A DNA stretch of 44,973 nucleotides from an uncultured bacterium (GTDB taxonomy: Bacteria > Planctomycetota > Planctomycetia > Gemmatales > HRBIN36), in contig CALLZJ010000359.1 of NCBI GenBank assembly GCA_937858435.1, forward strand, positions 1-44,973. Reading direction: 5' to 3'. Under the pieces are notes generated by a model. It was not told where the DNA came from and made no database searches. It saw nothing but the letters and a program-made list of their open reading frames with translations. Positions 1,016-38,891 of the stretch are shown in pieces. Position 1 is the first letter of the stretch. Every line of letters begins with the position of its first letter. Made by a program: the position numbers and the translations under genes.

Positions 1016-3076
1016 ATGTCGGTCGCCGTACCCACCACTGGCAAGAATCTGAACGCCTTGGGGCGTACGGTTCTCCTTGAGTTGGCCTACGAGGAATACC
1101 TCGACCAGGCCGAGGCGGGACAGCCTCCCGAGGTGGCCGACTTCTGCGCGAATTTTCCAGGGCTGGAAGAGTCGCTGGCCAACCTACTCGACCTGCACCA
1201 CCGCCTGAAGTTTCTGGACGAGCCTTCGTCCCGTTCTTGGCCTGTCGAGCTCCCGGCGATCCCTGAGTTCGAGATCGTGCGCTCGGTTGCCGGCGGCTCA
1301 CTGTCGCGTGTCTTCCTGGCCCGGGACCGGCAGGCGGCGATGCGGCCCGTGGTCCTCAAGTTGTCGCGGCTCGGCAACGAGGAAACCTACGTTCAGAGCA
1401 GCCTCGGGCGCCTGCAACACCGGAACATCGCGGGCTTTCTCTATTCTCGGCAGATGGAGGAAGGCTGGACGCTCGCAGTGATGCCCTTCCAAGGGGACCT
1501 CACTCTTGAGAGTTTCCTCCAGCAATGGGCCGGGCAAGGACCACCGGCTAACGTGCTGCAGAGCGCGCTGCAGGCCAGTGCCGCGAGCTGGTCTGACGTA
1601 ACCGGTGCCGAGGCTCCGGAAGTACCGCGGATTGGCTCCTTCCGCAACTGGGTGCTGGCCTGCGCCGAGCAGTTGGCGGATGCCCTGCAGGTGATTCACC
1701 GCGAGTACTCCCACGGCGACATTAAGCCCGCCAAGGTGCTGCTGCCCCCAAGGGGCTGCCCCTTGTTGCGGGTTTTCACCTTGTCCCGCCGCACCAGTGG
1801 CACGACCGTCCGGCCGGGCGGCACCCTGCTGTACATGGCTCCAGAATTGCTGGGAGCCTTGGCCGTGCGTCCTGGCACTTCTCTGCCGGCTGACCAACTG
1901 CTTGACTACTGCCGGGCTGACCAGTTCGCCTTTGGCGTGATGTTCATTCAGTTACTCACGGGCCGGCACCCCTATGCCTTGGCGTCGGACGGTGGCAAGA
2001 CCGTTCTGGAGCTTGTGGGGGAGTTGCAGGCGCGGCTGCGGACTCCTGCCGCCCGAACCTGGGAGCAAGCCAGGGTGCTGGATGGGGGTCTGCGTGAACT
2101 GCTGCGGCGCTGCGTGGCCGCTGATCCGGCGGAGCGCTGGCCGGACTTCGCTGCGATCAGGAACGAACTGCGCGATCGGCGGAGTCGACAGACCCGAGCC
2201 CGCCGGTTCTTCGCTGCCGCGGGCGTGGCGACGGCGTTAGCAGTCGCCACGGGCTGGCCCTTGGTTGCCAATCTGGCCAAGGAACAAGTCACCCCGGCGC
2301 TCGTCCAGCGCGCGCTGGACCAGGGCCGATTTGACCAGGCACTGGAAGCCGCTACCCAATTGGTGATCGCAGCGCCGGAGGACCCCGAAGTCCGCTTCCT
2401 TCGAGTTCTGGCCCTGGAGGGCAAGCAACAATATTCGGCAGCTATAGCCGACTTGAGTTTGAGTTTGCAATGGAAGCCCATGGCGGAGCGGTACGCGCTG
2501 TTGGCGTACTACTATGGGCTGCCCCCGACCAGACAGCCCGATAGCGCGAGAGTCTACGCGGAAAGGGCGCGCGATCTTGGTTGCACGTCGGCCGCAAACC
2601 TAGCCAACCTTGGTTACGCCTACCTGGCCACGGCGTCTCCGACGAGCGCCAAAGCCACCTTGGACCTTGCCATCAGCATGGACCTGCATCTGGCCATGGC
2701 GTATCGCAATCGGGCCAAGTGCTTCTTCGACCGGTTGATGAATTCCCCAACGAAGGACTTCCCAGACTATCCACTCGCCGAGCGCATCGCGGACATTTGC
2801 CGGGCCTTGGAGTCGCTCAGCTCCGGTGACATCCATGCCGACGCCGCCTCCATCTTTGCCCATGCCGCCCGTACCGACGAAACTTGGGGCCCCCGGGCGC
2901 TTGAACAGCTTCGCCTAGCCTTAAGCCAAGGTTGTGACCCGGCTCGCTTTCGTAAAGAGCCTGCATTCATGCCTCTACGGGCGCTGCCGGGCTTCGAGGC
3001 GATCTTGGACACCCCTGCCGCCCCCAATGCCATCTCATTCCTCCCACGCGTGGTCCATCCACTTCGGCCATATTGA
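1016..3076 (+). CDS. Ser/Thr protein kinase-like protein with degenerate catalytic motifs, one TM segment and a C-terminal TPR-like region (686 aa)
   Basis: Kinase fold markers are VVLKL (VAIK Lys), HGDIKPAK (HRDxKPxN-like) and YMAPELL (APE). The DFG position reads VFT. TM segment is FFAAAGVATALAVATGWPLVA, followed by helical repeats. Starts 5 nt after the sigma gene stop. Confidence 0.85.
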   Translation: MSVAVPTTGKNLNALGRTVLLELAYEEYLDQAEAGQPPEVADFCANFPGLEESLANLLDLHHRLKFLDEPSSRSWPVELPAIPEFEIVRSVAGGSLSRVFLARDRQAAMRPVVLKLSRLGNEETYVQSSLGRLQHRNIAGFLYSRQMEEGWTLAVMPFQGDLTLESFLQQWAGQGPPANVLQSALQASAASWSDVTGAEAPEVPRIGSFRNWVLACAEQLADALQVIHREYSHGDIKPAKVLLPPRGCPLLRVFTLSRRTSGTTVRPGGTLLYMAPELLGALAVRPGTSLPADQLLDYCRADQFAFGVMFIQLLTGRHPYALASDGGKTVLELVGELQARLRTPAARTWEQARVLDGGLRELLRRCVAADPAERWPDFAAIRNELRDRRSRQTRARRFFAAAGVATALAVATGWPLVANLAKEQVTPALVQRALDQGRFDQALEAATQLVIAAPEDPEVRFLRVLALEGKQQYSAAIADLSLSLQWKPMAERYALLAYYYGLPPTRQPDSARVYAERARDLGCTSAANLANLGYAYLATASPTSAKATLDLAISMDLHLAMAYRNRAKCFFDRLMNSPTKDFPDYPLAERIADICRALESLSSGDIHADAASIFAHAARTDETWGPRALEQLRLALSQGCDPARFRKEPAFMPLRALPGFEAILDTPAAPNAISFLPRVVHPLRPY

Positions 3077-3195: not shown

Positions 3196-3552
3196 ATGAC
3201 TTGGTCGAAGACCAGGCCCGTCCTCCGTCTGGCCCTGGCTTGCGTTGCCCTTCTTGTTGTCGCTGCAGAGGCCCGCCCGTTTCCCCGTCCCGTCGAGTCG
3301 TCCTTCACCAATGTTATCGTCGGGGCAAAAGGTGACATCCTTCTGATGAGCGGTGTCGTCACGGCACCGCCCGGCTGCCGGATCATTGTTACGGGACTTC
3401 CTGGTCACTCCAGCGTGGAGTTGCAGCTTGGTGCGGATGGTACGTTCTCCGGCTCCTTCCCTGTCCCTCCCGGCGCGTCTGGGTCCCTTCAGTTCAACCT
3501 CATTGATCCGTCCGGCGAGTTGCTCGATACCTACATCTCACACTTCGAGTAA
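3196..3552 (+). CDS. small secreted protein (118 aa), unknown function
   Basis: ATG at 3196 followed by a signal-peptide-like RPVLRLALACVALLVVAAEA. Beta-rich remainder. First gene of a tightly packed same-strand cluster. Confidence 0.5.
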   Translation: MTWSKTRPVLRLALACVALLVVAAEARPFPRPVESSFTNVIVGAKGDILLMSGVVTAPPGCRIIVTGLPGHSSVELQLGADGTFSGSFPVPPGASGSLQFNLIDPSGELLDTYISHFE

Positions 3553-3569
3553 CAGCAAAGGGAGTTACC

Positions 3570-3872
3570 ATGTCCACGCCTGAGGAGAAGCGACGGCGGA
3601 ATCTGCGCATTTGGGTCGGCCGGCGCCTTGTCCGACCAGACCCAGGAGCCATGCTGCCCTTTCACAACGTGCTCGATCGGCTTTGGTCGACCTGGCCTCA
3701 TTTGGCGTTGCCAGATGCGAGCTTAGCCAAGGACCAGTTGGCCACCCTGGTGCAGGTCGTTCTGGCCGCCAGGCGGCCGCAGTCGGTGCATCACACTCTG
3801 ATGAGCGTCACGCCGAGTGAAACACTGCCGGCCGGAACGCCCCTGGCTTCCCAGCATCCGGCCACACCCTGA
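3570..3872 (+). CDS. hypothetical protein (100 aa)
   Basis: Strong SD AAAGGGAG 6 nt upstream of the ATG. Lies 17 nt after the preceding stop. No recognisable motif. Confidence 0.45.
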   Translation: MSTPEEKRRRNLRIWVGRRLVRPDPGAMLPFHNVLDRLWSTWPHLALPDASLAKDQLATLVQVVLAARRPQSVHHTLMSVTPSETLPAGTPLASQHPATP

Positions 3873-3906
3873 ACGGCTCCCAAGCCCCATCTTCACTGGA
3901 GTTCCG

Positions 3907-5502
3907 ATGGCCACCCCGCACCAGCACGGCCGCACCCAGTACTTCATCGAGGGTGAAGGACTTGCGTCCAGCGACATGACCTCCCCGCGGTTGAAGCAGT
4001 TGTTTGCCCATCATCTTGCGGCCGCCGCGGCTCCCGTGCCCGCCGTCAACGCCAAGCGGGCGTTTCGTTTCTGTCGAATGTTCCCCGACTTGGCGAAGTT
4101 CCAGCCTGACGACTCTAGCCTGATCGCCCTGGGGCAAGCGCTAAACGATCCGTTCGTGGCGGGAGCGGGAGATTCTGATCTCCCAGCCGGATTCACCTAC
4201 CTGGGACAGTTCGTCGATCACGACATTACGTTCGATCGCACCGACGGGATTCCTGATGGCTCACTCGAACCCAAGGACATCGAGCAGGGGCGGTCGCCAG
4301 CCCTGGAGCTAGATAGCGTTTATGGCCGAGGCCCCAAGCATTCTCCCGAACTCTATGAAGCAGACGGTGTGCGGCTGCGCATCGGCACCACTACCGGAAG
4401 GGCTCTCTTCGGAGTCACCAAGTCCTTTCCTAACGACTTGCCACGGCATCCGGAGAGCGATCCGGCCCATCCGAAGCAAGCGATTATCGGCGACCCGCGC
4501 AACGACGAGAACCTGATCGTTGCCCAAACCCATCTTGCCTTCCTCAAGTTTCACAACGCCGTCGTAGCGCGATTGACGGCCTCAGCGGCCAAGCCCGACA
4601 ACCTGTTCGCGGAGGCCCGCAAGACAGTCGTGCAGCACTACCAGTCGATTGTCCTGCACGACTTCGTGCCGCGGCTGGTCGATCTCGAGGTTTGGCGCGA
4701 CGTGCTTACGAACGGACGGAAGTTCTTCTTCCCCAAGGGCGCGCCATCGGGCAGTCGCCTCGGCATGCCCGTCGAATTCTCCGTGGCCGCCTATCGCATG
4801 GGGCACAGTCTGGTGCGGAATGCCTATCAGTGGAACTCAGTCTTCAGCTCCGACGGCCGGGCTGGGTTCGTTCCCAGGTTGAACCTCTTCTTCGAGTTCT
4901 CCCAGGTGTCGGGCGACTTGGGTGGCTTTCCGACGCTGCCCAGCGACTGGATCGTGGACTGGCGGCGGATGTTCGACTTTAGCGAGCAACCCGGCGGCGG
5001 TCGCCATCCTCAACTCAACTTCGCTCGGCAGATCGATACGAAGCTGGCCAACGACTTGCAACTGTTGCCTGAATTTGCCACGGCCGAACAGGAACACTTG
5101 AAGTCGCTCGCGGTGCGCAACCTCCTTCGCGGCCGCCTGATTGGACTGCCTACGGGCCAGGATGTCGCGGCCAGGCTGGGCGTGCCATCCCTGACGCCGG
5201 CCGAAGTGGCCTCGGGGCCACATGCGGCGGTCATCCTTGCTTCTGGATTCGACACCCAGACGCCCTTGTGGTTCTACATCCTGAAGGAGGCGGAACTGAG
5301 GCAGGGTGGCATGCGCCTGGGCACCGTGGGTAGTCGACTCTTGTGTGAGACCTTCCACGGCCTGATTGAAGGGAGTGATTACTCGATTCTGAAAGAGGCT
5401 GATTGGGAGCCGAGCCTCCCCGCCCATCGGGGCGACCATTTCACCATGAACGACTTGCTGATCTTCGTGAACGACTTGAACCCGCTCGGCAACGGCCACT
5501 AG
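3907..5502 (+). CDS. haem peroxidase of the peroxidase-cyclooxygenase (animal haem peroxidase) superfamily, no signal peptide (531 aa)
   Basis: Distal-site motif GQFVDHDITFD, GDPRNDENLIVAQTHLAFLKFHN, and proximal His motif FSVAAYRMGHSLV. GGAG lies 5 nt upstream of ATG 3907. The longer 3817 start would overlap the upstream ORF. Confidence 0.85.
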   Translation: MATPHQHGRTQYFIEGEGLASSDMTSPRLKQLFAHHLAAAAAPVPAVNAKRAFRFCRMFPDLAKFQPDDSSLIALGQALNDPFVAGAGDSDLPAGFTYLGQFVDHDITFDRTDGIPDGSLEPKDIEQGRSPALELDSVYGRGPKHSPELYEADGVRLRIGTTTGRALFGVTKSFPNDLPRHPESDPAHPKQAIIGDPRNDENLIVAQTHLAFLKFHNAVVARLTASAAKPDNLFAEARKTVVQHYQSIVLHDFVPRLVDLEVWRDVLTNGRKFFFPKGAPSGSRLGMPVEFSVAAYRMGHSLVRNAYQWNSVFSSDGRAGFVPRLNLFFEFSQVSGDLGGFPTLPSDWIVDWRRMFDFSEQPGGGRHPQLNFARQIDTKLANDLQLLPEFATAEQEHLKSLAVRNLLRGRLIGLPTGQDVAARLGVPSLTPAEVASGPHAAVILASGFDTQTPLWFYILKEAELRQGGMRLGTVGSRLLCETFHGLIEGSDYSILKEADWEPSLPAHRGDHFTMNDLLIFVNDLNPLGNGH

Positions 5503-5518
5503 GTGAATGGAGTTTGAA

Positions 5519-7756
5519 ATGGCAATTATCGACCAAGTCAAAGCGGCGTGTGACCGATTGGCCCCGCTCGGTTGGAGGGCGCTCATCCTGGCAGCAACCC
5601 GAGACGTGCTGGACATTGCCGCCCCGACGGCGGCCGAATTGGCCGCCCGCCTCGACAAGGAACTCCTTCCGGCGGATGTGAATCGTTCGGTTGCCGGCTT
5701 CAGCGACTTTGCACAAGCGACCACTCGGGGAGTGTTCCCAGGTTCGCCGGCACGCAGCCTCCTGTACCACGCGTTCGCCAGCCCGGGCGTCGAGCTCGCG
5801 CCGGACGGCTCGGTGCTCGGCGGATTCCCGACCCTCGCCGAAATCGAAGCCCTTGAAAACTACGTGTTCGCCGCCAGACGAGCATCGATTGCGACCTTGC
5901 GAACCCTGGTCGGTGGGGTAGAGCTATCTGTCGTCGTGTTTGCCTGCGAGTACCGGCCGGCCAAGGACACCCCTTCGAAACTGCAGGCCGATCTGACTTT
6001 CTCCCGCACGGGTCTCGCCCGCGTGGGAACGGCTCCGCCCCGGTATGATGGGGCCGCTCGCGGGTTCTGGCCCGAGGACGAAGCCGACCCCTTCGGCATC
6101 CGTGTGTGCCCGGCCCGCTATGTAGCCTACCTGGCAGTCAAAGTCAAAGGCGCGGTGGCCAGGCCCATGCGGCCACAGACGGGTGATGCCGCACGTGACT
6201 TCTGGCAGCCGGTGCACAAGTTGTTCCCCGGCCCCGAGTGTCTAAACGGAGTCAACGTCGATCTCGGCTTCACCGCCGCGCACATCAACGAGAAACTCCG
6301 ACGCATCCACAAGGCCCTCGGTGCGGATGATTCCGAGCGACTGCAAGCTCCGCCCTTCCGCTTCTCGGAGGGGATTGCCAATCTGGCGAGTGGGACCGAC
6401 TTCCCGGCCGGGACCCTCGTGCCGGTCGTTCACCGGCGGCTGGTGGAGCCAGCCCGCGGCGCGGCGGGAGCGTCCGTTTCTTATCGCGTCCCCGCGGATA
6501 ACGGCAGCTTTTTTGCCGCCTATGAGCCTGGTAGCTCGGCGCCGGAATACGTCCATGCCCGGACCGAGGTGGACGGGTCGGGCGGTCTTACCGACCTCAA
6601 CAACCTTACCGATGTCAGAGCGCGCGTGGCGGCTGGCGACTATGACGCGCTCCATTACGTGGACTTCACCGGTGACGGCCAGGTGCAAGCGGTATGTCCA
6701 GCCGTGACCGCCCTCGCCGAGGTCGCGAACAGGACCGTTCCGGCCTATTCCCTGGTGGCCGCGCCAGACTTCTTTCCTTCCGTCGGCCAGCGGGAACTGA
6801 CCGAATGGACCGAAACGGCCATTCCATTAGCGGAGCGCAACAGCATCTGGGCAGTCCCGCCAACCCCACTGTGCGATACGCGCCTGGCCGCCAACCTGCA
6901 ACTTCCGGGCATGACTTTCGATCCGCGGGAGGTGACCGTCACGGCGCTCCTCACTCTGCGTGACGAGCCGCCAGTGGCGGTCGGCCCGCCGAAATCGAAG
7001 GACGCCCGGCGTCACTCGGCCTTGCCGGACGACGGGGCCGGGGTGTTCGCTCCGGGCTGGGACACCGCCCGGGACCGGACGGAGGACGGCGTCGGCCACT
7101 TGGCGGTGTATGGGCTCGGCAGCCCGTTCCCGGAGGATGCCAAATTGTGTGCGGCCTTGAGCACGTTCTGGCCGGCTGTGGCTCCGGACGTCGCCCGCAC
7201 TTTTCTCGACAACCCTGCCACTCGGCGGGGCACGGCCTCTCCTCTCTTCGATGACGAGATCGGGCAGGTGGGCGGGGTGTCGTGGGACGGCATTCCCGGT
7301 CCGCGCGTGGTCGATGTCGGAGGCGTGCAGTTCCTTGAAGGCGCCGATTTCCAGCACGCCGACTATGTGGAAGAGGCCTTGAACGGGCGGTGGTCGATCC
7401 GGATCACGGCGGCGGTCACGACTGCCGAGTACACCAGCCGTACCCGGGCCATGGCTCGCGCCCACCGGGCGCTCCCGGTTGCGAACCGGGACCGGTGGTT
7501 CGTCATTTCGTTCCGGCGGGCGGCTTTGGGGGATCCGGACCTGGTCTCGGCGCAAGGGATGACCAGCGTGGTGCTGGCCGGCCCGGTCTTCCGTATCGAC
7601 CTGTGTCGGTGGGTCTCGGGCTCGTTGATTTCGACGGATGTGCGGCGGGCACGAATGCCGATTAACGACCGGCGGCTGATGTTCGCGTCCGCTGACACGT
7701 CCGCGGTGCTGCTCAGGCCCTTCTCGTCCGCCGTCTGGTCCGCGGTTGCCACGTGA
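5519..7756 (+). CDS. large conserved-looking hypothetical protein (745 aa), no assignable domain
   Basis: Long ORF with high third-position GC. GGAG lies 6 nt upstream of ATG 5519 (alternative ATG at 5507). Starts 16 nt after the peroxidase stop, and its stop overlaps the next start (GTGA). Confidence 0.7.
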   Translation: MAIIDQVKAACDRLAPLGWRALILAATRDVLDIAAPTAAELAARLDKELLPADVNRSVAGFSDFAQATTRGVFPGSPARSLLYHAFASPGVELAPDGSVLGGFPTLAEIEALENYVFAARRASIATLRTLVGGVELSVVVFACEYRPAKDTPSKLQADLTFSRTGLARVGTAPPRYDGAARGFWPEDEADPFGIRVCPARYVAYLAVKVKGAVARPMRPQTGDAARDFWQPVHKLFPGPECLNGVNVDLGFTAAHINEKLRRIHKALGADDSERLQAPPFRFSEGIANLASGTDFPAGTLVPVVHRRLVEPARGAAGASVSYRVPADNGSFFAAYEPGSSAPEYVHARTEVDGSGGLTDLNNLTDVRARVAAGDYDALHYVDFTGDGQVQAVCPAVTALAEVANRTVPAYSLVAAPDFFPSVGQRELTEWTETAIPLAERNSIWAVPPTPLCDTRLAANLQLPGMTFDPREVTVTALLTLRDEPPVAVGPPKSKDARRHSALPDDGAGVFAPGWDTARDRTEDGVGHLAVYGLGSPFPEDAKLCAALSTFWPAVAPDVARTFLDNPATRRGTASPLFDDEIGQVGGVSWDGIPGPRVVDVGGVQFLEGADFQHADYVEEALNGRWSIRITAAVTTAEYTSRTRAMARAHRALPVANRDRWFVISFRRAALGDPDLVSAQGMTSVVLAGPVFRIDLCRWVSGSLISTDVRRARMPINDRRLMFASADTSAVLLRPFSSAVWSAVAT

Positions 7757-8775
7757 TCGACTGCGATGTGCTCGTCATTGGTGCAGGCCCGGCCGGAACC
7801 GCGGCGGCCATTACGGCGGCGCGGGCCGGCCTCAGCACCGTCATCGTCGAGCACCTCCAGTTTCCCCGCCACCGGCCGGGCGAAACGCTGCCGCCGGGCG
7901 TGGAACCGCTCCTCCGTCACCTCGGCGTGTGGGACTCCCTCAACCTGGCGGATTGTGTCAGGCATCCAGGCGTGTCTGTCTGGGAGCACGGTGGCCAGCG
8001 GCTCTCGCTGTACGGTGCCGATGACTACGGGCCATGGCTCGGCTTGCAGGTGCCGCGCGCCGTGCTCGACGACACCCTGCTGACCGCGGCCCGGCGGGCG
8101 AATTGTCGCATACTCCAGCCGCTGCGGGCCGCGACGGCCTGGCGCGAGGGCGAGCGCGTCGGTGGAATCAGGTCGCACTGCGGCCAGAATGTGCGTGCCC
8201 GCTGGACCATCGACGCCAGTGGCGGTGGCCATTGGCTCGCCAACCGGCTCGGCTCTTCCGTCGCCAGGCACAGCATCCCGCTCGCCGTCCGCTATGGCTA
8301 CACGCACCGGACGACGGCAGACGTGAGCACCGTGCCGTTCTTCTGCCGCGAGCCGAACGGTTGGACGTGGATGGCCCAAGTGGGACCTGACCGCTTTCAC
8401 TGGGCCCGCCTCCGTCCGGCCGGGACACCGATCGAACCGCCGGTCGAGTTTGCTTCAGAGATCGCGGCGGACCCCATCCGCGGGGCGGATGTCACCTGGC
8501 GCCTGGTGCCCACTGCCGCGGGAGCGGGCTACTTTCTCGTTGGCGACGCGGTGATGGTGTTCGACCCGGCCGCGGCCAACGGCGTACTCCGGGGCCTACT
8601 CACCGGGATCATGGCCGGGCACGCCGCGGCGCGCATCCACAAGGGCTTGTCGGAGAAGATGGCCATCATCGGTTACTCGCGGTGGGTCAGCGACCTCTTC
8701 GCATCCACGCTCCAGCGGATGTCGGCGGAATTCCCGGAGCTTGCCCGACCGCAAGCGACCGAGGTGAGTCGTTGA
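7753..8775 (+). CDS. FAD-dependent oxidoreductase (geranylgeranyl-reductase/halogenase-like fold, 340 aa)
   Basis: N-terminal dinucleotide motif DVLVIGAGPAGTAAA, a second FAD motif FLVGDAVMVFDPAAANGV, and a GWTWM string. GTG start overlaps the upstream TGA by 4 nt. Confidence 0.8.
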   Translation: MIDCDVLVIGAGPAGTAAAITAARAGLSTVIVEHLQFPRHRPGETLPPGVEPLLRHLGVWDSLNLADCVRHPGVSVWEHGGQRLSLYGADDYGPWLGLQVPRAVLDDTLLTAARRANCRILQPLRAATAWREGERVGGIRSHCGQNVRARWTIDASGGGHWLANRLGSSVARHSIPLAVRYGYTHRTTADVSTVPFFCREPNGWTWMAQVGPDRFHWARLRPAGTPIEPPVEFASEIAADPIRGADVTWRLVPTAAGAGYFLVGDAVMVFDPAAANGVLRGLLTGIMAGHAAARIHKGLSEKMAIIGYSRWVSDLFASTLQRMSAEFPELARPQATEVSR

Positions 8776-8815
8776 GATGGTTGGCTGGGCAGGCCCGAAC
8801 GTGGCTAGGCCGCTA

Positions 8816-9013
8816 TCAGGGCCCGATGTAGTAGGGGCCTAAGCTGGGCGCGTCGGGCTGATCCACTTCCATGATCCAAGGAAAGACCCTGCAGTTTGGT
8901 AGATGCTCCTTCAACTCCTGTAGCCCCGCGTCCATCACCTCTATGGCGATGAGCGAGAGCGATTGCAACCCTTGTTCTCGCGGCGGGTTGGCACGGCGTG
9001 GCAAGTACGCCAC
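8816..9013 (-). pseudogene. possible remnant of the C-terminus of a leucine-rich-repeat protein
   Basis: The translation ends ...LSLIAIEVMDAGLQELKEHLPNCRVF, which resembles the typical LRR C-terminal ending (xTDAGLxELxxALPNCxI). No credible N-terminus or SD. Sits in a 600-nt gene-poor stretch. Confidence 0.25.
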
Positions 9014-9388
9014 ACCGTGGCACGGCCAGCGGCGGGGTCGGGGTTGATGTCACTCACAACCGACGACGCGAACCCACCTCCAAGTTGGTAGGGTGGGGGC
9101 AGGTCGCCGATCTGAAGGTGGAAGGTGCGCCCAAAGGTCCGGTCGGCAGTCAGACTCTGGAACCGGCGGGCGCTTTGGGAGCGAGCGCCGGCGCTTCGCC
9201 AGAGTCGGCCACGAAGTCCGCAGACAGGCCGGCACCGCGGTGAACTGTGCGAAATCACTCGAAAAGTGGCATTCGGAGGCCGCTTGAGAACGCCTGGCAA
9301 CCCCGTGGAGGCCCCCTGGGACCCCCGTGGCGAAGCGTAGCGGACGCGCCCAGACGCGTGGCGAGCAGTCAGGCGCGGCAGAAAGGAG

Positions 9389-9459
9389 CTGGGGAACTAG
9401 GATTCGAACCTAGACTAACTGATCCAGAGTCAGTCGTGCTACCGTTACACCATTCCCCA
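9389..9459 (-). tRNA. tRNA-Gln (anticodon CUG)
   Basis: The reverse complement folds as a cloverleaf: acceptor TGGGGAA/TTCCCCA, D stem GTGT/GCAC, anticodon stem ACTGA/TCAGT with loop CT-CTG-GA, T arm CTAGG-TTCGAAT-CCTAG, discriminator G. CCA is not encoded. Confidence 0.9.
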
Positions 9460-9499: not shown

Positions 9500-9517
9500 G
9501 CCGGTTTGGCCGGGGGT

Positions 9518-11119
9518 TCACGTGGATCGGCCGGCCAGTTCCGGCTGGGGTTCAGCCGCGTCGGCCGCCTCCGGGCAGGGCGACCAGACCAGTTCGAGCT
9601 TCCGATCAAAGACCCGTTCAAACAGTCGGCCCTTCTGTGTCGCCCCCCAGAGGTCCACCTCGGGCTCGGTGGTACTTTGCACCTCGATGCGCACCGTGCC
9701 GTTGTCCACCTGGGCCTGCACGCCACGGATGCGCTGGGTGTGGGAGCGGTCCAGTCCGTCGGCCACGCGGAGCAGGGCACTCATGCGGCGGACGGCGGCC
9801 TGTTCGGCCGGTGCGAGCCGGCCGTAGGCCGCGTGCTTGCTCTTGGGCTCTGCCTTGCGGTGGTAACGGGCGATGTTGGCGATCAGTTCACGCTGCTGCG
9901 TCGAGATGCCGGTCAGGTTGCCATGCTTGATCAAGTGGTAGCTATGCTGATGGTGCTTTTCATAGTTGATGAGCGACCCGATCTCATGGAGCCAGGCGGC
10001 GGACTCGAGCAGGAACCGCTCCTGGGGCGGCAGGCCGAGCGGCTGCTGAAGCTGGTCGAAGAGCATTCCCGCCAGCCGGGCCACCTGGCCGGCGTGGGCG
10101 GGCTCATAGCGGCAAGCGGCGCCGAACTGCTGAATGACTTCGATCGGGGAGAGCTTGTCGCCGCCCGGGGTGCGGCGGCCGAACTGCTCTTCGATCATGG
10201 CGCGGATGAGCCCGTCGCGGACGCCCTTGTCGTGGACAAGCAAGCGGTTGATGTGAAGCCACTTCATCAGCCGCTCGATGACGGCGACGCCGGCGATGAT
10301 GATATCGGCTCGGTCGGCGTGAAGGCCGGGCACGCTCCGGCGTTCCGCCAAGGGCAGCATCATGAGCAGGTCGAGCACGTGGCGAACTTCGCTGCGATTG
10401 AGGGCGAAGCCGGCTACCGGCCGTTCATCCAGCCCACGCAGCCGCATGACCATGTTGGCCAGGGCGGAGAAGGTGCCGCCGGCCCCGGTCATCAGGTGGG
10501 GCAGGAAGGTAGGTTCGCTGACCTTTTCGGTGTAGAGCTTCTTGACCCGCTTGCGCAGGGCGCGCAGTTCCGACTTGGCGGGAGGATCGGATTGGAGATA
10601 GGCCTCGGTCAGGCGGACCGCACCGGCGGGCAGAGAGACGATCTCCTCGATGTTGCCAAGGGCGGCAAAGACCAGTTCGCAACTGCCGCCCCCCAGGTCG
10701 CAGTGAAGCACGTGCTGATCGTGCAAGTCGTAATGGGCGGCAACGCTGCGGTAGGAGAACTCACCTTCGTCCGTGGCGGAGATGATCTCGATTTCCAGAC
10801 CGGTCTGTTGCTCGACGGCTCGGATGCAGTCGGCGCGATTATCGGCGTCGCGCATGGCACTGGTGGCGATTACGCGGAGCCGGTCGACCTGGTAACCCTG
10901 GACGATGCTCTTCATGCGGCGCAGGGCGTCGATCGTGTGGATGACGGCTTCCTGGGCGAGCTGACCGGTCGTGGCCAGTCCGTGGGCCAGGCGCGTGGTT
11001 TCTTTGTGGTCGTCCAGGATGCGATAGTCGCCCTGGGGGCTGGCCTCGACGACCATGAGGCGCACGGAGTTCGAGCCGATGTCGATGGCGGCAAGGCGTT
11101 TGACCGGTTCAGCGGCCAC
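9518..11119 (-). CDS. ppx: exopolyphosphatase / guanosine pentaphosphate phosphohydrolase (Ppx/GppA family with C-terminal HD domain, 533 aa)
   Basis: N-terminal ASKHA motif LAAIDIGSNSVRLMVVE, DLGGGSCELV, and an HD-domain region (HEIGSLINYEKHHQHSYHLI). GTG start with AGGAG 6 nt upstream. Confidence 0.9.
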   Translation of the reverse strand: MAAEPVKRLAAIDIGSNSVRLMVVEASPQGDYRILDDHKETTRLAHGLATTGQLAQEAVIHTIDALRRMKSIVQGYQVDRLRVIATSAMRDADNRADCIRAVEQQTGLEIEIISATDEGEFSYRSVAAHYDLHDQHVLHCDLGGGSCELVFAALGNIEEIVSLPAGAVRLTEAYLQSDPPAKSELRALRKRVKKLYTEKVSEPTFLPHLMTGAGGTFSALANMVMRLRGLDERPVAGFALNRSEVRHVLDLLMMLPLAERRSVPGLHADRADIIIAGVAVIERLMKWLHINRLLVHDKGVRDGLIRAMIEEQFGRRTPGGDKLSPIEVIQQFGAACRYEPAHAGQVARLAGMLFDQLQQPLGLPPQERFLLESAAWLHEIGSLINYEKHHQHSYHLIKHGNLTGISTQQRELIANIARYHRKAEPKSKHAAYGRLAPAEQAAVRRMSALLRVADGLDRSHTQRIRGVQAQVDNGTVRIEVQSTTEPEVDLWGATQKGRLFERVFDRKLELVWSPCPEAADAAEPQPELAGRST

Positions 11120-11341
11120 GAGATACTCCTGGAGACCGATTCCGTTCTACAGATAGAGTACCTGACCAGCCCGGGGACGGGAATCGGCCACACAGAAACT
11201 TTAAAGAGTGGAGTGCGGGACCCAGCGGCGGCAGACCGCCACAGGCCCGGGCAGTCCATACCCTGAACCAGGATCGGTGCCATTTGTCTTTGGAAGGGAG
11301 GCAAGCCCGTTGTGAGGGCGGCCTCCGAGAGGGTCAAGCCC

Positions 11342-29430: not shown

Positions 29431-30914
29431 TCGGCCCCAGCTTTCCTGTCCACGCTGCTGTCCGGCCGTACCTGCTTTAGCCACTCATGCCATTCCGCCT
29501 CGATGGCGGGCAGAGGCATCCCCACCAGCGACGTGAACGGGGCGACTTTGTCCGACTCGGTGCCCGCAATCCGGGCATAGCGATCCAGGTCTGCCAGCGG
29601 CGTGGTCCGGTGAATGACCAGCCAGTGGGAGAGGGCCCAGGCGGCCACAAAGTAGCGGTCGGCCCGCAGCGTCTGGGTCAGATGGCCAACCTGGAAAACT
29701 CGCGGGTCGTCTCGGAGGATGGACTCCAGGCTCGGCAGTTCGCCCCGCTTCAGCATCTCCTTAGCAGCCTGGAGGCGCTCTGCATCCAGCTTGCCCCAAC
29801 GCACTGCGCCGGCTTCCAGGACTACCGTCTCGAACATCTGGGCAAGCCCCTCGTTGAGCCAACGTGGGAGAGCGTGGCTTGCCGTGGGATAGACGGCCGT
29901 GTCCACCAAGGCATGGAGCGCTTCATGGAAGAGCACGGCGAAGAAACTCGCCTTCATACGTTCGAACAGGGCTTCGTTCTCCCCCGCCAGGGCGAGCACC
30001 TTCAGACGCTGGTCGCGGGACCGGGCGATGAGGTCGAATGGCACGGAAGAGCCGAAGTGCCGACGAAGCTTCGCTTCATAGTCATCCAGCTCGGCGAGCT
30101 TGGCCTTGTGCCGCTGCTGAACCGTGTTCAGCTCCGCGGCCAGGCGGTCCAACTCGCAGACGGCCACCAGTTCCTTCCGCTGCGGATCGTAACAGGCGGG
30201 ATTGAGGATCCGGAGCCGGCGCCGCCGTTGCCAGGCGGCGTAGTCCTCCCAGCGTGTGAGTACGACGACCTCGATCGGCTTCAGGGCATCGGAGGCCAAC
30301 TCGAATCGGGTGGCGGCGGCCAGGAGCAACTCCTCGAGCCGGACCGCGATCAGCCGCAGCGTCTCCGGCTCGGCATCGGAGGTGATGCGGCAGGTACGGC
30401 CCTCATAGCGTCGGCCGGCCGGCAGACCATCCTGAGCGGGCACGTCGGTCAAGGTGACGGCGGCGACGCGCTCTGCTTCTCGGAGGCCGGCCGTCGCCAA
30501 GCGTTCCAGAAAGGCCGTCGCTTGCTGGCGTTCGGTGAGCGGCAAGCGTTCGATGCGGTCGATCTCTTCGGACTCGTAAGAAGCATCGATGGTCTGCGTG
30601 CGCGCGCCGGGACGGCGGAGGACGATCTTGAAACGGACGAGGCCCGCCGTCTCGGAGACGATCACGCCTTCGAACTCCGTGCCGTCCTTGAGGACGAGGC
30701 GATCGAGCTTGAAGTCGTCGATGGAGGCAAGGGGCGGCGTTGGCGTGGCAGGCTGGTTCGGCGTAGGCGTGGTGGGCGCTGTCGGCGTGGGGGAGCGCGA
30801 GGCCGGCGCCGTCGGCGCGGGCGTCGGTGCTTGGGCAAGCACTTGGGAGAGTGCTGCGAGTCCAACCAGGATGGCCAGACTGGCCAGGGTAAGCCGCTCG
30901 TGCCGCTTGGCCAT
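29427..30914 (-). CDS. secreted DUF1570-like putative metallopeptidase (495 aa)
   Basis: Signal MAKRHERLTLASLAILVGLAALSQVLA, PT-rich linker, HExxH (FHEALHAL) followed by RWLNEGLAQMFE. The stop overlaps the coaC stop (CTAG). Confidence 0.7.
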   Translation of the reverse strand: MAKRHERLTLASLAILVGLAALSQVLAQAPTPAPTAPASRSPTPTAPTTPTPNQPATPTPPLASIDDFKLDRLVLKDGTEFEGVIVSETAGLVRFKIVLRRPGARTQTIDASYESEEIDRIERLPLTERQQATAFLERLATAGLREAERVAAVTLTDVPAQDGLPAGRRYEGRTCRITSDAEPETLRLIAVRLEELLLAAATRFELASDALKPIEVVVLTRWEDYAAWQRRRRLRILNPACYDPQRKELVAVCELDRLAAELNTVQQRHKAKLAELDDYEAKLRRHFGSSVPFDLIARSRDQRLKVLALAGENEALFERMKASFFAVLFHEALHALVDTAVYPTASHALPRWLNEGLAQMFETVVLEAGAVRWGKLDAERLQAAKEMLKRGELPSLESILRDDPRVFQVGHLTQTLRADRYFVAAWALSHWLVIHRTTPLADLDRYARIAGTESDKVAPFTSLVGMPLPAIEAEWHEWLKQVRPDSSVDRKAGAD

Positions 30915-31019
30915 GTTGTGTTCCTCGCCTGCGCCCCGGTCTCTTACCTCCATTGAAACGCAGAGCGCGAGCGGAAGCCAGGGTTAGCGGCGGAAACCGA
31001 AAAAAATGGCGTCTTCGTC

Positions 31020-31047
31020 TTGACCGTTGACGATGTGAAGCTATGTT
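31020..31047 (+). promoter_or_regulatory. candidate sigma-70-type promoter upstream of the secretin gene
   Basis: TTGACC-N16-TATGTT lies in the 307-nt divergent intergenic region, about 175 nt upstream of the GTG start. Confidence 0.2.
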
Positions 31048-31221
31048 CCGCGGCCACGCGCTGGTTTCATGCGCCGCAATCGGCACAGCGGGTGGGCGGC
31101 AAGGAAGCCGCATCCTGCGGATCGAGTACACGCTGGACCGCTTGTCACCGGCCATCCCCGCGGGGGGGACTCGAGGGACGCCGGCGGGGAACAAGACAAC
31201 GGGACGCGAAAGGAGGCTGGG

Positions 31222-34200
31222 GTGAAAAGGGCTTTGTTCGTAGCCTGGCTCAGCGGCATGGGTCTGGTGGGGATTGGCCCCGACCGCCTGGCCGCGCAAT
31301 CGACGGACGCACCGGGCGGCGCTGAAGCCCGGCCCGTCAAGCCGCGCACCGCGCTGGAGATGGGTCGCAACGCCTTCTACAAGGGCGAGTTCGAAATGGC
31401 CGACGTCTACCTGCGCCAGGCGCAGGAAGTGCGGCCCCAGCTCGCGCCGACCGAGCAGTCGGAACTCGACGCGCTCGTGAAGCGCAACGGGGAAGCGCTG
31501 AAGGGTCGGCTCGCCGCCCTCGATCTGATCAAGAAGGCCAGCGATGCGCTGAACGCGGGCCGCACTCGGGAAGCCGAGAGCCTCCTGCGCAGCCTCCAAG
31601 CCAACAAGTTCCTCAACGCCAACGATCGACAGGTCGTGGCCCAGCTCAACGACCAGCTCCGCAAGGGCGGAGCCAAGCCCGCGAGCCCGGTGACCGCGTC
31701 GAATCGGCCCACGCCGCAAAACCCGGACGCGCTGCTCGCCGAAGGCCGCAAGGCCCTCGAAGGCCGCGACTATGACCAGGCTGAAGCCCTGGCAATTCCC
31801 CCCATCCAGGGGGGTTTCTCCGCGGTGGGGCCCGGGAGCGATCCCCCCCAGAAGGTGCCCAAGGCCGTGCCCGCCGCTCGGCCCCGGGCGGCGCGCGCGG
31901 CCCAGGCTCCCGCCACGCCTGCTCCGACGGGTGATGCCCGTTCGACGGTGGCGCGGGAGAAGCTCAAGCAGGCGCATCAGTCGGTGCGGGCCGGCGACAC
32001 CGTGACCGCAGCCCGTCTGGTGCGTGAAGTCGAAGAAATGAAGGTCGCCTTCCTCTGGTCCGAGGAGCTGACCCCCGACAAGCTGAAGAACGAAATCGCC
32101 AAGGTCGAAGCCCGCAACGTCCAGCAGGCTGGCATGGTGCAGCAAGCTCCGTCCCAGCCGGCCGCGCCGCCGGGTGCCGACGCCCGGATGCTGGTCCGCG
32201 AAGCCAAGAAGGCGCTCGACGCCGGCGACCTCGATCGGGCGGAAGAACTGGCCCGCCAGGCCCGGCTCCAGCCGACGAGCTGGAGTCTCTTCGAAGAGAC
32301 CGCTGACGGCATGCTCGCCGAAGTCGCCAAGGCCCGCGAGCAGGTCAACAGCAAGCGCGCCGGTGAACTGCTCACCCAGGCCCGCCGGCTGGTCGAGCAG
32401 GGCATGTTCGACGAAGCCGAGAAGCTGACCTACCAGGCCGAAGCGCTCCGCCGCAGCTACCCGATCTGGTATCGGGGCGAGCGGCCGGACCGCCTCCGGG
32501 CCGAGATCACGACCAAACGCCGCACGACGACCCGGCCGCAACTGCCGCCGCTGCTCGATCCGGCGACGGCCCGTGGCCCGGCTCCGAGCCCGACCAGCCC
32601 GACCACTCCGAATCTGACGGCCACCGCCCAGACTGACCCGCGTCAGGTCCAGGCCGCTGGCATGCTGACTCAGGCCCGCGTCCACCTGAACCGGGGCGAG
32701 TACAAGGCCGCCATCGATCTGGCCCAGCAGGTCCAGGCGATGAACGTCACCCTCGCTGCCGGCAGCGACAGCCCCGATGCCATCATCAAGGCGGTGCAGG
32801 TCTCGATGGGATATGCTCAGCAGCAGGAAAATCCGGCCCAGGGCGAAGTGGCCCGCCGCCAGGCCCTGCAGCTCATCGCCGAGGCCCGGCTGCAGATGCG
32901 GAACGAGAACATCGTTGCCGCCCAGCAGTTGGTCGCCAAGGCCCAGTCCATCGGCGCCTATTTCCAGCCGACGGACGACACCCCCGAGCGGGTGCTGACC
33001 GAACTGCGGCAGAAGGCCGCCGCTCAGGTGAAGACCTACTCCGACGCCGCCCGGACGCTGATCGAGCGCGGCGAAGCCAAGAAGGCCGAAGCCTACATCG
33101 CCTACGTCCAGAAGGTGGGCGGTTCCTTCAGCATCGACACGACGGTGGTCGTGGGCGATCTGCAGCAGAAGTTGTCGGCGACCGTGGTCGCCCAGGTGAC
33201 TCCGCCGCAGGCCCCGACCATGCCATCGGTTTCGGCTCCGCCCGCCCCGGCCGCTCCGGTCGTGGTGAGCGAGGCGCCGGCCGCGCCGCCGGCTCCGCCG
33301 GCCGTGGCTCAGGCCGCACCGTCGACGCCGCCGACTGCGGAACCCGCTCCGGCGGCTCCGAGCAGCCCGGTTGCCAGCAGCGTGCCGACGCCGGCGATGC
33401 CCGAAGCGCCAACGATGCCGGAAGTGCCCACGGCTCCGTCCGTGGCTCCGAGTCCGGTGGCGGTCGCTCAGACCGCGCCCACCGCGCCGCCGGTCGCCGC
33501 TCCGGTCCAGGGTCAGCAGATGCTGGCCGAGGCCCAGGCGGCTCTGGAGCAGGGTAACATGACGCAAGCCCGCAAGCTGGCCGAGGCTGTCTTCATCGGC
33601 AGTCCGGAGCTGAAGGGCGCTGCCAACCAGATGCTGTCCGCGATCGACCTGGCGGAGGAAAAGCAGGCACACGACCGCGCTCGCATGACCTTCGAACAGT
33701 TCGTGCGTGCCTGCCAGCGGCAGGAATTCGAAGTGGCTCTGAGCTATGCTCACACGCTGGACGCCGGCAAGCTGGATCCGGCGAGCCGGGCCCAGTTCCA
33801 GGAACTGATGGCCTCGCGTGAACTGCAGCCGCGGGTGACGCAGGTCCAGGCGACCGAGTCGCATCCGGCCGTGGCCCAGGCCCAGCCTTCGCTTCCCAGC
33901 CCCGGAGTGGGTCAGCCGCCGGTCGACGACGGCATGGGCGAATTCCGGGCCCGGCAGGAAGTCGAGTTCCAGCGCCTCCGTGAAGTCAAGCGGCTGAGCG
34001 AGGTGAAGGCCAACCAGTTGGCGGGCAAGGGCGACCTGGACGGCGCTATCGCCGAACTCAAGGCCGTGCTCGCGGAGATCGACAAGGCCAGCATCGACCC
34101 CGAAATGAGCGCCAAGCTCGAGCGTCAGGTCAACGAGCGGCTGAACCGCTTCAAGATCATGGCCGAGCAGGTGGCCTTCGCCAAGATGCAGGAACGCCAG

Positions 34201-38802: not shown

Positions 38803-38891
<89 letters not shown>

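Follow-up and report, generated by a model that had tools for sequence, protein, structure and literature searches.

What does a 745-aa protein that matches no family model do between a haem peroxidase and a flavoprotein in a planctomycete genome? The question is raised by contig CALLZJ010000359.1 (assembly GCA_937858435.1) of an uncultured bacterium of the Gemmatales (Planctomycetota), which we analysed over positions 1 to 44,973 of its forward strand; this whole stretch of 44,973 nt is called the window here. Five plus-strand open reading frames (ORFs) lie at 3196–8775, and a first annotation made from the letters alone (the sequence-only reading) had taken them as one oxidative module of a composition unlike any described system. 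We find that the conserved core is the pair formed by the 745-aa protein (5519–7756) and the 340-aa flavin adenine dinucleotide (FAD) protein that follows it (7753–8775). This pair is most likely a very divergent and unannotated relative of the lodA/lodB (goxA/goxB) pair, so that the core would be of a known kind of two-gene system (LodA/GoxA plus LodB/GoxB/QhpG type). As an explanation of the locus as a whole, we favour, with good but not full confidence, a pair of the lodAB/goxAB kind that encodes an oxidase with a cysteine tryptophylquinone (CTQ) cofactor and its maturase, next to a haem peroxidase that handles hydrogen peroxide (H2O2).

The 745-aa protein gave no match in Pfam, NCBIfam or the sequences of the PDB, even at E ≤ 10. 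The sequence-only reading had called it unplaceable, which stands as far as database families go; profile–profile comparison and a structure model, described below, do connect it to LodA/GoxA. Its homologues number at least 1098 at about 50% identity, all labelled hypothetical and none with a Pfam domain, and come from Planctomycetota, Nitrospira, Acidobacteriota, cyanobacteria and Pseudomonas. An exhaustive profile search returned 1086 clusters (50% identity) at E ≤ 1e-3 and 560 at E ≤ 1e-30, and a pattern scan located relatives in at least 392 of 185,579 species-representative genomes. Eighty loci drawn from those 392 genomes underlie the genome-locus counts given here. In 77 of the 77 loci with room for it, across at least 10 phyla, the next gene downstream in the same orientation encodes a flavoprotein homologue; in the remaining three the contig ends before that position. 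Apart from the flavoprotein, no neighbour is universal across the 80 loci. A literature search, which was not exhaustive, found no description of the 745-aa family, and the pair appears to be a large undescribed branch of a known enzyme–maturase kind that current family models miss.

The 340-aa protein (7753–8775, +; GTG start) carries a GxGxxG motif and matches Pfam FAD_binding_3, FAD_oxidored and the N-terminus of Trp_halogenase. Its best NCBIfam matches are QhpG (5e-22) and GoxB (5e-21), with LodB further down (3.5e-14). QhpG (a peptidyl-tryptophan dihydroxylase), GoxB and LodB are flavoenzymes that hydroxylate a Trp inside a partner protein to make CTQ. All three scores fall under the equivalog cut-offs (78 bits vs 240 for QhpG, 75 vs 400 for GoxB, 53 vs 400 for LodB), as do those of an authentic LodB-like protein from Azospirillum, to which the window protein is 30% identical over 335 aa (E = 9e-15). 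The ranking recurs in six partner flavoproteins from five phyla, including those of Pseudomonas, Nitrospira, Scytonema and Pyrinomonadaceae, each with QhpG as best family followed by GoxB, LodB and CmlS. Among PDB entries, the relatives are CmlS, Bmp2-type halogenases and QhpG, which places the protein with the CmlS-like flavoproteins; QhpG and GoxB themselves reportedly resemble CmlS most (PMC7876137).

A halogenase assignment was considered for the flavoprotein and rejected, since Lys occurs only at residues 297 and 302 and the Trp_halogenase match covers residues 5–63 only. The exclusion of the Lys-dependent halogenase mechanism in the sequence-only reading is borne out, as is the near absence of Lys, although the Lys-free stretch runs for 296 residues and not for roughly 310. 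On family ranking and adjacency, the protein is predicted to be a peptidyl-tryptophan hydroxylase, a maturase of the LodB/GoxB/QhpG type. These matches, together with the gene order of LodA/GoxA, pointed to the orphan upstream as a LodA-like protein that had gone unrecognized.

LodA and GoxA are oxidases of about 700–800 aa whose genes lie directly upstream of a maturase gene (PMC4417212). The seed for the LodA/GoxA comparison was an annotated LodA/GoxA oxidase with its LodB-like partner, encoded on Azospirillum plasmid pAB510e (NC_013859), a pair with the same gene order as in the window and a 4-nt overlap; the GoxA sequence was taken from a PDB alignment, and two diverse LodA/GoxA protein sets were gathered. 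Alignment of the family profile (110 sequences) with the LodA/GoxA profile (53 sequences) by hhalign gave P = 7.5e-5 over the whole protein. When the family profile was cut into seven consecutive segments, three of the seven had their best match at the expected place in LodA/GoxA (P = 2.4e-4, 8.9e-7 and 0.028), against P = 0.09–0.73 for decoys made by reversing the profiles. By our own arithmetic, Fisher combination of the three forward P-values comes to about 2e-9. In the reverse search, six LodA segments fell at family positions 161–176, 395–437, 429–447, 513–529, 544–568 and 644–664, in perfectly colinear order. Remote homology to LodA/GoxA was thus found in both directions. A circular permutation was also considered, because residues 4–96 matched LodA 266–335 (P = 0.004), but it was rejected when the reciprocal search put that LodA segment colinearly at 429–447.

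The N-terminal match, FSRTGLARVGT (residues 161–171; 5999–6031, +), corresponds to IGiARVGN at the N-terminus of LodA_N (P = 2.4e-4, reciprocal 6.7e-4, best decoy 0.09), and its R163 and G170 are found in every one of the 116 family members. The central match covers residues 379–423 (6653–6787, +), where HYVDFTGDGQVQAV...AYSLVAAPDFFPSVG corresponds to GoxA WFDDICDGRVTAVV...AWVATTPPDYAPQ (P = 8.9e-7, probability 91%, reciprocal P = 7.1e-6) and DFTGDGQVQAV...AYSLVAAPDFFP is aligned with the LodA/GoxA motif DDICDGxVTA...AWVxxAPPxYAP. The third match places the predicted cofactor site at LGSPFPED540AKLC544AALSTFW551PAVAPD (7115–7195, +; P = 0.028, reciprocal P = 0.0097), with LGSPFPEDAKLC...FWPAVAPD aligned to MGIPWQxDAASC...WWPAxxP.

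In this alignment D540 (codon 7136–7138), C544 (7148–7150) and W551 (7169–7171) are in register with D678, C682 and W697 of GoxA (motif PWQSD678AASC682...W697). We predict that D540 takes the place of the catalytic or biogenesis Asp and that C544 and W551 form the CTQ pair. Of 116 diverse members (30–78% identity), 115 retain all three residues. The one member that lacks them, P0364, has lost all three together and may be a cofactor-less pseudo-enzyme. In known LodA-like proteins, the Cys and Trp that form CTQ are present throughout (PMC4417212). A second Cys, C241 (6239–6241; motif KLFxGxEC), is present without exception in the 116 members and could be mapped to no LodA/GoxA counterpart.

Structure prediction pointed in the same direction. 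A first AlphaFold2 model, built with 48 close homologues, left the cofactor motif at a predicted local distance difference test score (pLDDT) below 50, and Foldseek retrieved only GoxA (E = 0.84). A second model, built with 116 diverse sequences, reached pLDDT 95.5 and a predicted template modelling score of 0.94; against 350,542 PDB chains its best match was LodA (2ymw; E = 1.6e-3, probability 0.77, 353 columns), with GoxA chains at ranks 2, 3, 5, 6 and 9. The fold evidence for kinship with LodA/GoxA is supportive, not conclusive: the structure search that the sequence-only reading had proposed for 5519–7756 did rank LodA and GoxA on top, with a match that is borderline.

Comparison with the characterized pairs shows what is shared. 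LodA of Marinomonas mediterranea, an L-lysine epsilon-oxidase encoded with its maturase LodB (PDB 2YMW, 3WEU), is of similar size (726 aa vs 745 aa), its gene likewise precedes the flavoprotein gene, and it has ARVG, DGxVxA...APD[FY]xP and PxxxDAxxC...WPAxxP in the same order as the window protein; neither carries a classical signal peptide. With the CTQ glycine oxidase GoxA and its maturase GoxB (PDB 6BYW, 6UC1), the 745-aa protein shares the D-x3-C...W register, although its Cys–Trp loop is eight residues shorter. QhpC and QhpG of quinohaemoprotein amine dehydrogenase (QHNDH) offer another parallel, as the short spacing here recalls that between Cys37 and Trp43 of QhpC (Trp43 as numbered in PMC7876137). 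Unlike the window protein, QhpC is a small and multiply cross-linked subunit. It depends on an exporter, a protease and a radical S-adenosylmethionine enzyme, which the window lacks, and QHNDH, which has haem c subunits, works as a dehydrogenase instead of an oxidase.

Export distinguishes members within the 745-aa family. Many carry a twin-arginine translocation (Tat) signal peptide at the N-terminus, for example MNRRNFMKS or MDRRRFIQQAG (P0252, P0269, P0274, P0283, P0288, P0299, P0301, P0304, P0326 and P0341), as do many GoxA-group proteins (PMC4417212), whereas the window protein has neither a Tat nor any other export signal. Its start at 5519 is preferred over the ATG at 5507 because the N-termini of homologues agree there (MxLID...). 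By these sequence features the family has both exported and cytoplasmic members, and the Tat signals fit enzymes that mature in the cytoplasm and are then exported.

The peroxidase (3907–5502, +; 531 aa) is a short bacterial member of the peroxidase-cyclooxygenase superfamily without a signal peptide, as the sequence-only reading had it. It matches Pfam An_peroxidase (PF03098) with 82.8 bits against a cut-off of 25 (E = 2.7e-23) and contains GQFVDHDITFD, GDPRNDENL and AAYRMGHS; Q101, the distal H105, R198, E201 and the proximal H300 are invariant in nine pair-linked animal-type peroxidases. A haem peroxidase adjoins the pair in 13 of the 80 loci. Animal-type enzymes account for six of the 13 (five immediately upstream in the same orientation, one divergent) and DyP-type enzymes for seven (six upstream, one downstream). 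Loci L005–L010 likewise have an animal-type or DyP peroxidase beside the pair.

In a tree of the large protein the two kinds of linkage are intermixed: the window and L005 (animal-type) have the DyP-linked L006 as their sister, and an animal-type case is nested within peroxidase-less Nitrospira. This implies repeated gain, loss and swapping of the peroxidase beside the pair, and the recurrence of two unrelated folds fits a need for some haem peroxidase. A comparable association occurs in known LodA-like proteins: many of them, such as WP_012978545 of Azospirillum sp. B510, carry a catalase-like haem domain as a fusion (PMC4417212), a CTQ-type oxidase coupled to a peroxide-handling haem fold. 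Unlike in those fusions, the haem protein here is a separate gene with the animal-peroxidase fold (DyP in relatives), present at about one locus in six.

The mechanism that we propose for the locus begins with a translationally coupled enzyme–maturase pair of the lodA/lodB (goxA/goxB) kind. The 745-aa protein would build CTQ from two of its own residues, C544 and W551, close to D540; the 340-aa FAD protein would hydroxylate that Trp once the precursor has folded and would thereby complete the quinone, in the manner of LodB, GoxB and QhpG. The mature enzyme would act as an oxidase, not as a dehydrogenase, converting a primary amine or amino acid with O2 into a carbonyl product, ammonium and H2O2. 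Because the window protein lacks an export signal, the H2O2 would appear in the cytoplasm, where the haem peroxidase encoded 16 nt upstream on the same strand most likely would consume it, either as protection or by oxidizing a second substrate. The view in the sequence-only reading of an oxidative and probably oxidant-producing cluster, not a plain detoxification enzyme, is probably right.

Several observations weigh against this explanation. Pfam LodA_N (PF17990) and LodA_C (PF18417) and NCBIfam gave no match at E ≤ 10 to the window protein or to 48 family members, although a distant paralogue reached LodA_N at a sub-threshold E = 0.029. Neither hmmsearch of the PDB with the 48- and 110-sequence family profiles nor phmmer retrieved LodA or GoxA, and there is no significant pairwise or hidden Markov model match to LodA. 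The CTQ-motif segment on its own reaches only P = 0.028, and the Cys–Trp spacing is 7 residues here vs 15–16 in GoxA-type proteins and 65 in LodA, so that the geometry of the site may differ from that of LodA/GoxA. No Foldseek chain reaches E ≤ 0.001, the top match being borderline at E = 1.6e-3, and the template modelling scores (TM-scores) of the LodA/GoxA matches are 0.10–0.16 (0.15 for LodA); because these scores are low, the domain arrangement must differ much from LodA/GoxA. About 155 extra residues stand ahead of the ARVG motif, and the linkers are shorter.

The peroxidase part of the explanation has its own counterevidence. There is no peroxidase within 8 kb of the pair in 67 of the 80 loci, among them most of the Nitrospira and nearly all of the cyanobacterial ones, and the flavoprotein is always kept. 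No such pair lies near any of the 80 metagenomic sequences closest to the window peroxidase (37–53% identity), and these relatives have no conserved neighbour in common; the window's peroxidase clade is otherwise mostly stand-alone. A dedicated peroxidase partner was rejected on this result, and we keep the peroxidase as facultative. The synteny of three large genes expected in the sequence-only reading thus stands for oxidase and flavoprotein (77/77) and fails for the peroxidase, and its five-gene module reduces to the pair, with a peroxidase that DyP can replace. The 745-aa protein remains most likely a deeply divergent homologue in the LodA/GoxA superfamily.

Could the peroxidase instead serve the cofactor? 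MauG is a di-haem enzyme that completes the tryptophan tryptophylquinone of methylamine dehydrogenase, and by analogy the peroxidase would be a second maturation factor, driving completion of the tryptophylquinone with peroxide. Haem (MauG) and flavin (LodB, GoxB, QhpG) tryptophylquinone maturases are both known (PMC7876137), and a peroxidase gene immediately precedes the pair in the same orientation both in the window and at 11 of the 13 genome loci with a peroxidase. Against this role stand the many loci that keep the flavoprotein without any peroxidase, the two unrelated folds and the mostly stand-alone clade, and we regard it as highly improbable. The repeated recruitment of two unrelated peroxidase families would also suit a biosynthetic or antimicrobial cascade, in which the quinoprotein makes a reactive imine or aldehyde plus H2O2 and the peroxidase uses both to couple, cross-link or halogenate a product. 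Parallels exist in the VioA/VioB logic of an amino-acid oxidase with a haem enzyme and in peroxidase-generated hypohalite; a PF12902 'Ferritin-like' protein, which we take to be a VioB/RebD-type domain, neighbours the pair in L008/L009 and is fused to family member P0371. The peroxidase also retains the Glu and Asp of the haem ester links of halide-oxidizing animal peroxidases, and group ID LodA-like operons hold tyrosinases and multicopper oxidases as well (PMC4417212). Set against these points are the lack of conserved tailoring, carrier, transporter or immunity genes around the pair and the absence of the peroxidase from most loci, which make such a cascade unlikely. A broader variant, in which an unrecognized sister family of CTQ oxidases and an interchangeable haem peroxidase form a self-contained cytoplasmic cascade that generates and uses H2O2 and does more than oxidize amino acids, seems to us a tentative, somewhat more open possibility that we would still not expect. 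On that variant, the compact C-x6-W site may have a cofactor or chemistry distinct from LodA/GoxA, the H2O2 could serve, for example, to halogenate or oxidatively couple a product derived from an amine, or the system could act as an effector of conflict or cell death, and the family would comprise at least 1000 clusters in Nitrospira, cyanobacteria, Acidobacteriota, Planctomycetota, Verrucomicrobiota, Proteobacteria, Actinobacteria and Firmicutes. A more sceptical view is that the 745-aa protein is no quinoprotein at all. In that case the flavoprotein would act on small molecules, as a monooxygenase or halogenase-like enzyme, its large partner would be an unrelated protein such as a scaffold, carrier or different enzyme, and the shared motifs would be convergent or due to chance. 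The missing database matches, the low TM-scores and the sub-cut-off flavoprotein scores speak for that view, and single-sequence PDB matches of the flavoprotein are stronger to the halogenases Bmp2 and CmlS than to QhpG. It is nevertheless very unlikely, given three colinear profile matches that far beat decoys and six reciprocal ones, LodA and GoxA as top structural matches, D, C and W kept and lost together, the missing halogenase Lys, and a universal coupling of the pair with order and overlap as in lodAB.

The remaining alternative is that all five ORFs form one operon controlled by an extracytoplasmic function (ECF) sigma factor and act as a unit. The five ORFs, their spacings (17, 34 and 16 nt), the GTGA start/stop overlap at 7753–7756 and the peroxidase motifs were all found again where the sequence-only reading had placed them; its gap of 120 nt to the sigma/kinase pair is 119 nt from the kinase stop at 3076. 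GC content by codon position is coding-like in five of five ORFs. A scan limited to sigma-70 showed no excess of promoter-like sites within the cluster, nor was there an excess of terminator-like sites, a result that is compatible with a single transcript for the cluster and demonstrates none; the short gaps and common strand likewise speak for one operon. Near the DyP-linked pair in L006/L007 there are likewise a Ser/Thr kinase and an ECF sigma factor, and kinases occur near L008/L009. ECF and kinase genes are, however, very abundant in Planctomycetota and Acidobacteriota, and the window's sigma factor and kinase each have 0 of 80 tblastn matches in related loci; elsewhere, similarity to the kinase is of the generic kinase-domain sort (24–26%). 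With the two small ORFs, tblastn was negative throughout, against the 80 genome loci, the 80 loci of peroxidase relatives and L005, the relative with 78% identity. On these counts we dropped all four (both small ORFs, sigma factor and kinase) as conserved parts, contrary to the sequence-only reading, and consider a five-gene unit improbable; ECF control of the cluster is suggested by adjacency as its sole basis. The preferred reading remains the oxidase–maturase pair with a facultative peroxidase.

The 118-aa ORF (3196–3552, +) has a signal-peptide-like N-terminus, and the 100-aa ORF (3570–3872, +) has a Shine-Dalgarno sequence, AAGGGAG, 7 nt before its ATG; neither has a Pfam or NCBIfam match or is conserved with the system. 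Their status as genes is uncertain, and the coding-like signal is weakest in these two, with GC contents at third codon positions of 0.68 and 0.72, vs 0.76–0.83 in the large genes. Upstream, an ECF-type sigma factor (444–1010, +) and a Ser/Thr kinase with TPR repeats (1016–3076, +) were assigned by Pfam/NCBIfam family matches. The top PADLOC/NCBIfam matches of the kinase are the defence-associated kinases PD-T4-6, MkoA and MADS6, through the generic kinase domain only. An anti-phage defence system was rejected, as PADLOC found nothing for the five proteins and only these generic matches for the neighbouring kinase. Downstream, tRNA-Gln(CTG) at 9388–9459 (−) bounds the cluster 612 nt past the flavoprotein gene.

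Enzymes with protein-derived tryptophylquinones are few, and to our knowledge only lysine epsilon-oxidase and glycine oxidase have been characterized among LodA-type activities. If the preferred reading is true, more than 1000 'hypothetical protein' clusters become candidate quinoprotein oxidases, each with a dedicated maturase and a precise predicted cofactor site, in environmentally important groups such as Nitrospira, Nitrosospira, heterocystous cyanobacteria and soil Acidobacteriota. It would also widen the sequence and structure range of CTQ biogenesis (a very short Cys–Trp spacing, an extra N-terminal domain), supply new oxidases for biosensing, and provide a natural experiment on an intracellular H2O2-producing enzyme whose peroxidase is present, absent or swapped.

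Variation in and around the family was noted in several genomes. N-terminal fusions (P0260, P0282, P0266, P0371) involve subtilase Peptidase_S8 twice, a peptidoglycan-binding domain and PF12902, and a separate PF12902 gene (L008:6665-7969) lies between a DyP peroxidase and the pair in Pyrinomonadaceae. In Pseudomonas frederiksbergensis (GCA_021390215.1; L010:994-7803) there is a second, very divergent paralogue of 777 aa (31% identity), which keeps the D-x3-C-x6-W motif and carries a GoxA-like DDICDGYVTA motif. Its gene follows its own flavoprotein gene, the reversed order, is divergent from the peroxidase–pair cluster, and adjoins a 555-aa protein and a DUF8225 protein; that couple also occurs near the pair in L028, L031, L075 and L082. 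Conflict-type genes flank the pair in L002, L004 and L010 (nSTAND and AAA_35 nucleoside triphosphatases, HigB toxin, Lamassu LmuB_C), and a UvrA-like gene adjoins it in nine Nitrospira loci; these associations could be chance, the taxa being gene-rich.

Elsewhere in the window, neither strand of the spacer at 8776–9387 holds an ORF that reaches 120 aa, and a tRNA-Ser(GGA) lies at 38803–38891 (+). Long ORFs overlap on opposite strands at 9506–11266 (+, 586 aa) and 9518–11119 (−, 533 aa); the plus-strand ORF has no Pfam/NCBIfam match and an odd codon-position GC (0.82/0.44/0.71), and the real gene may be on the minus strand. Another such overlap involves 30403–35112 (−, 1569 aa) and 31069–36234 (+, 1721 aa), which sit in a stretch of 69–70% GC with strong AT skew.

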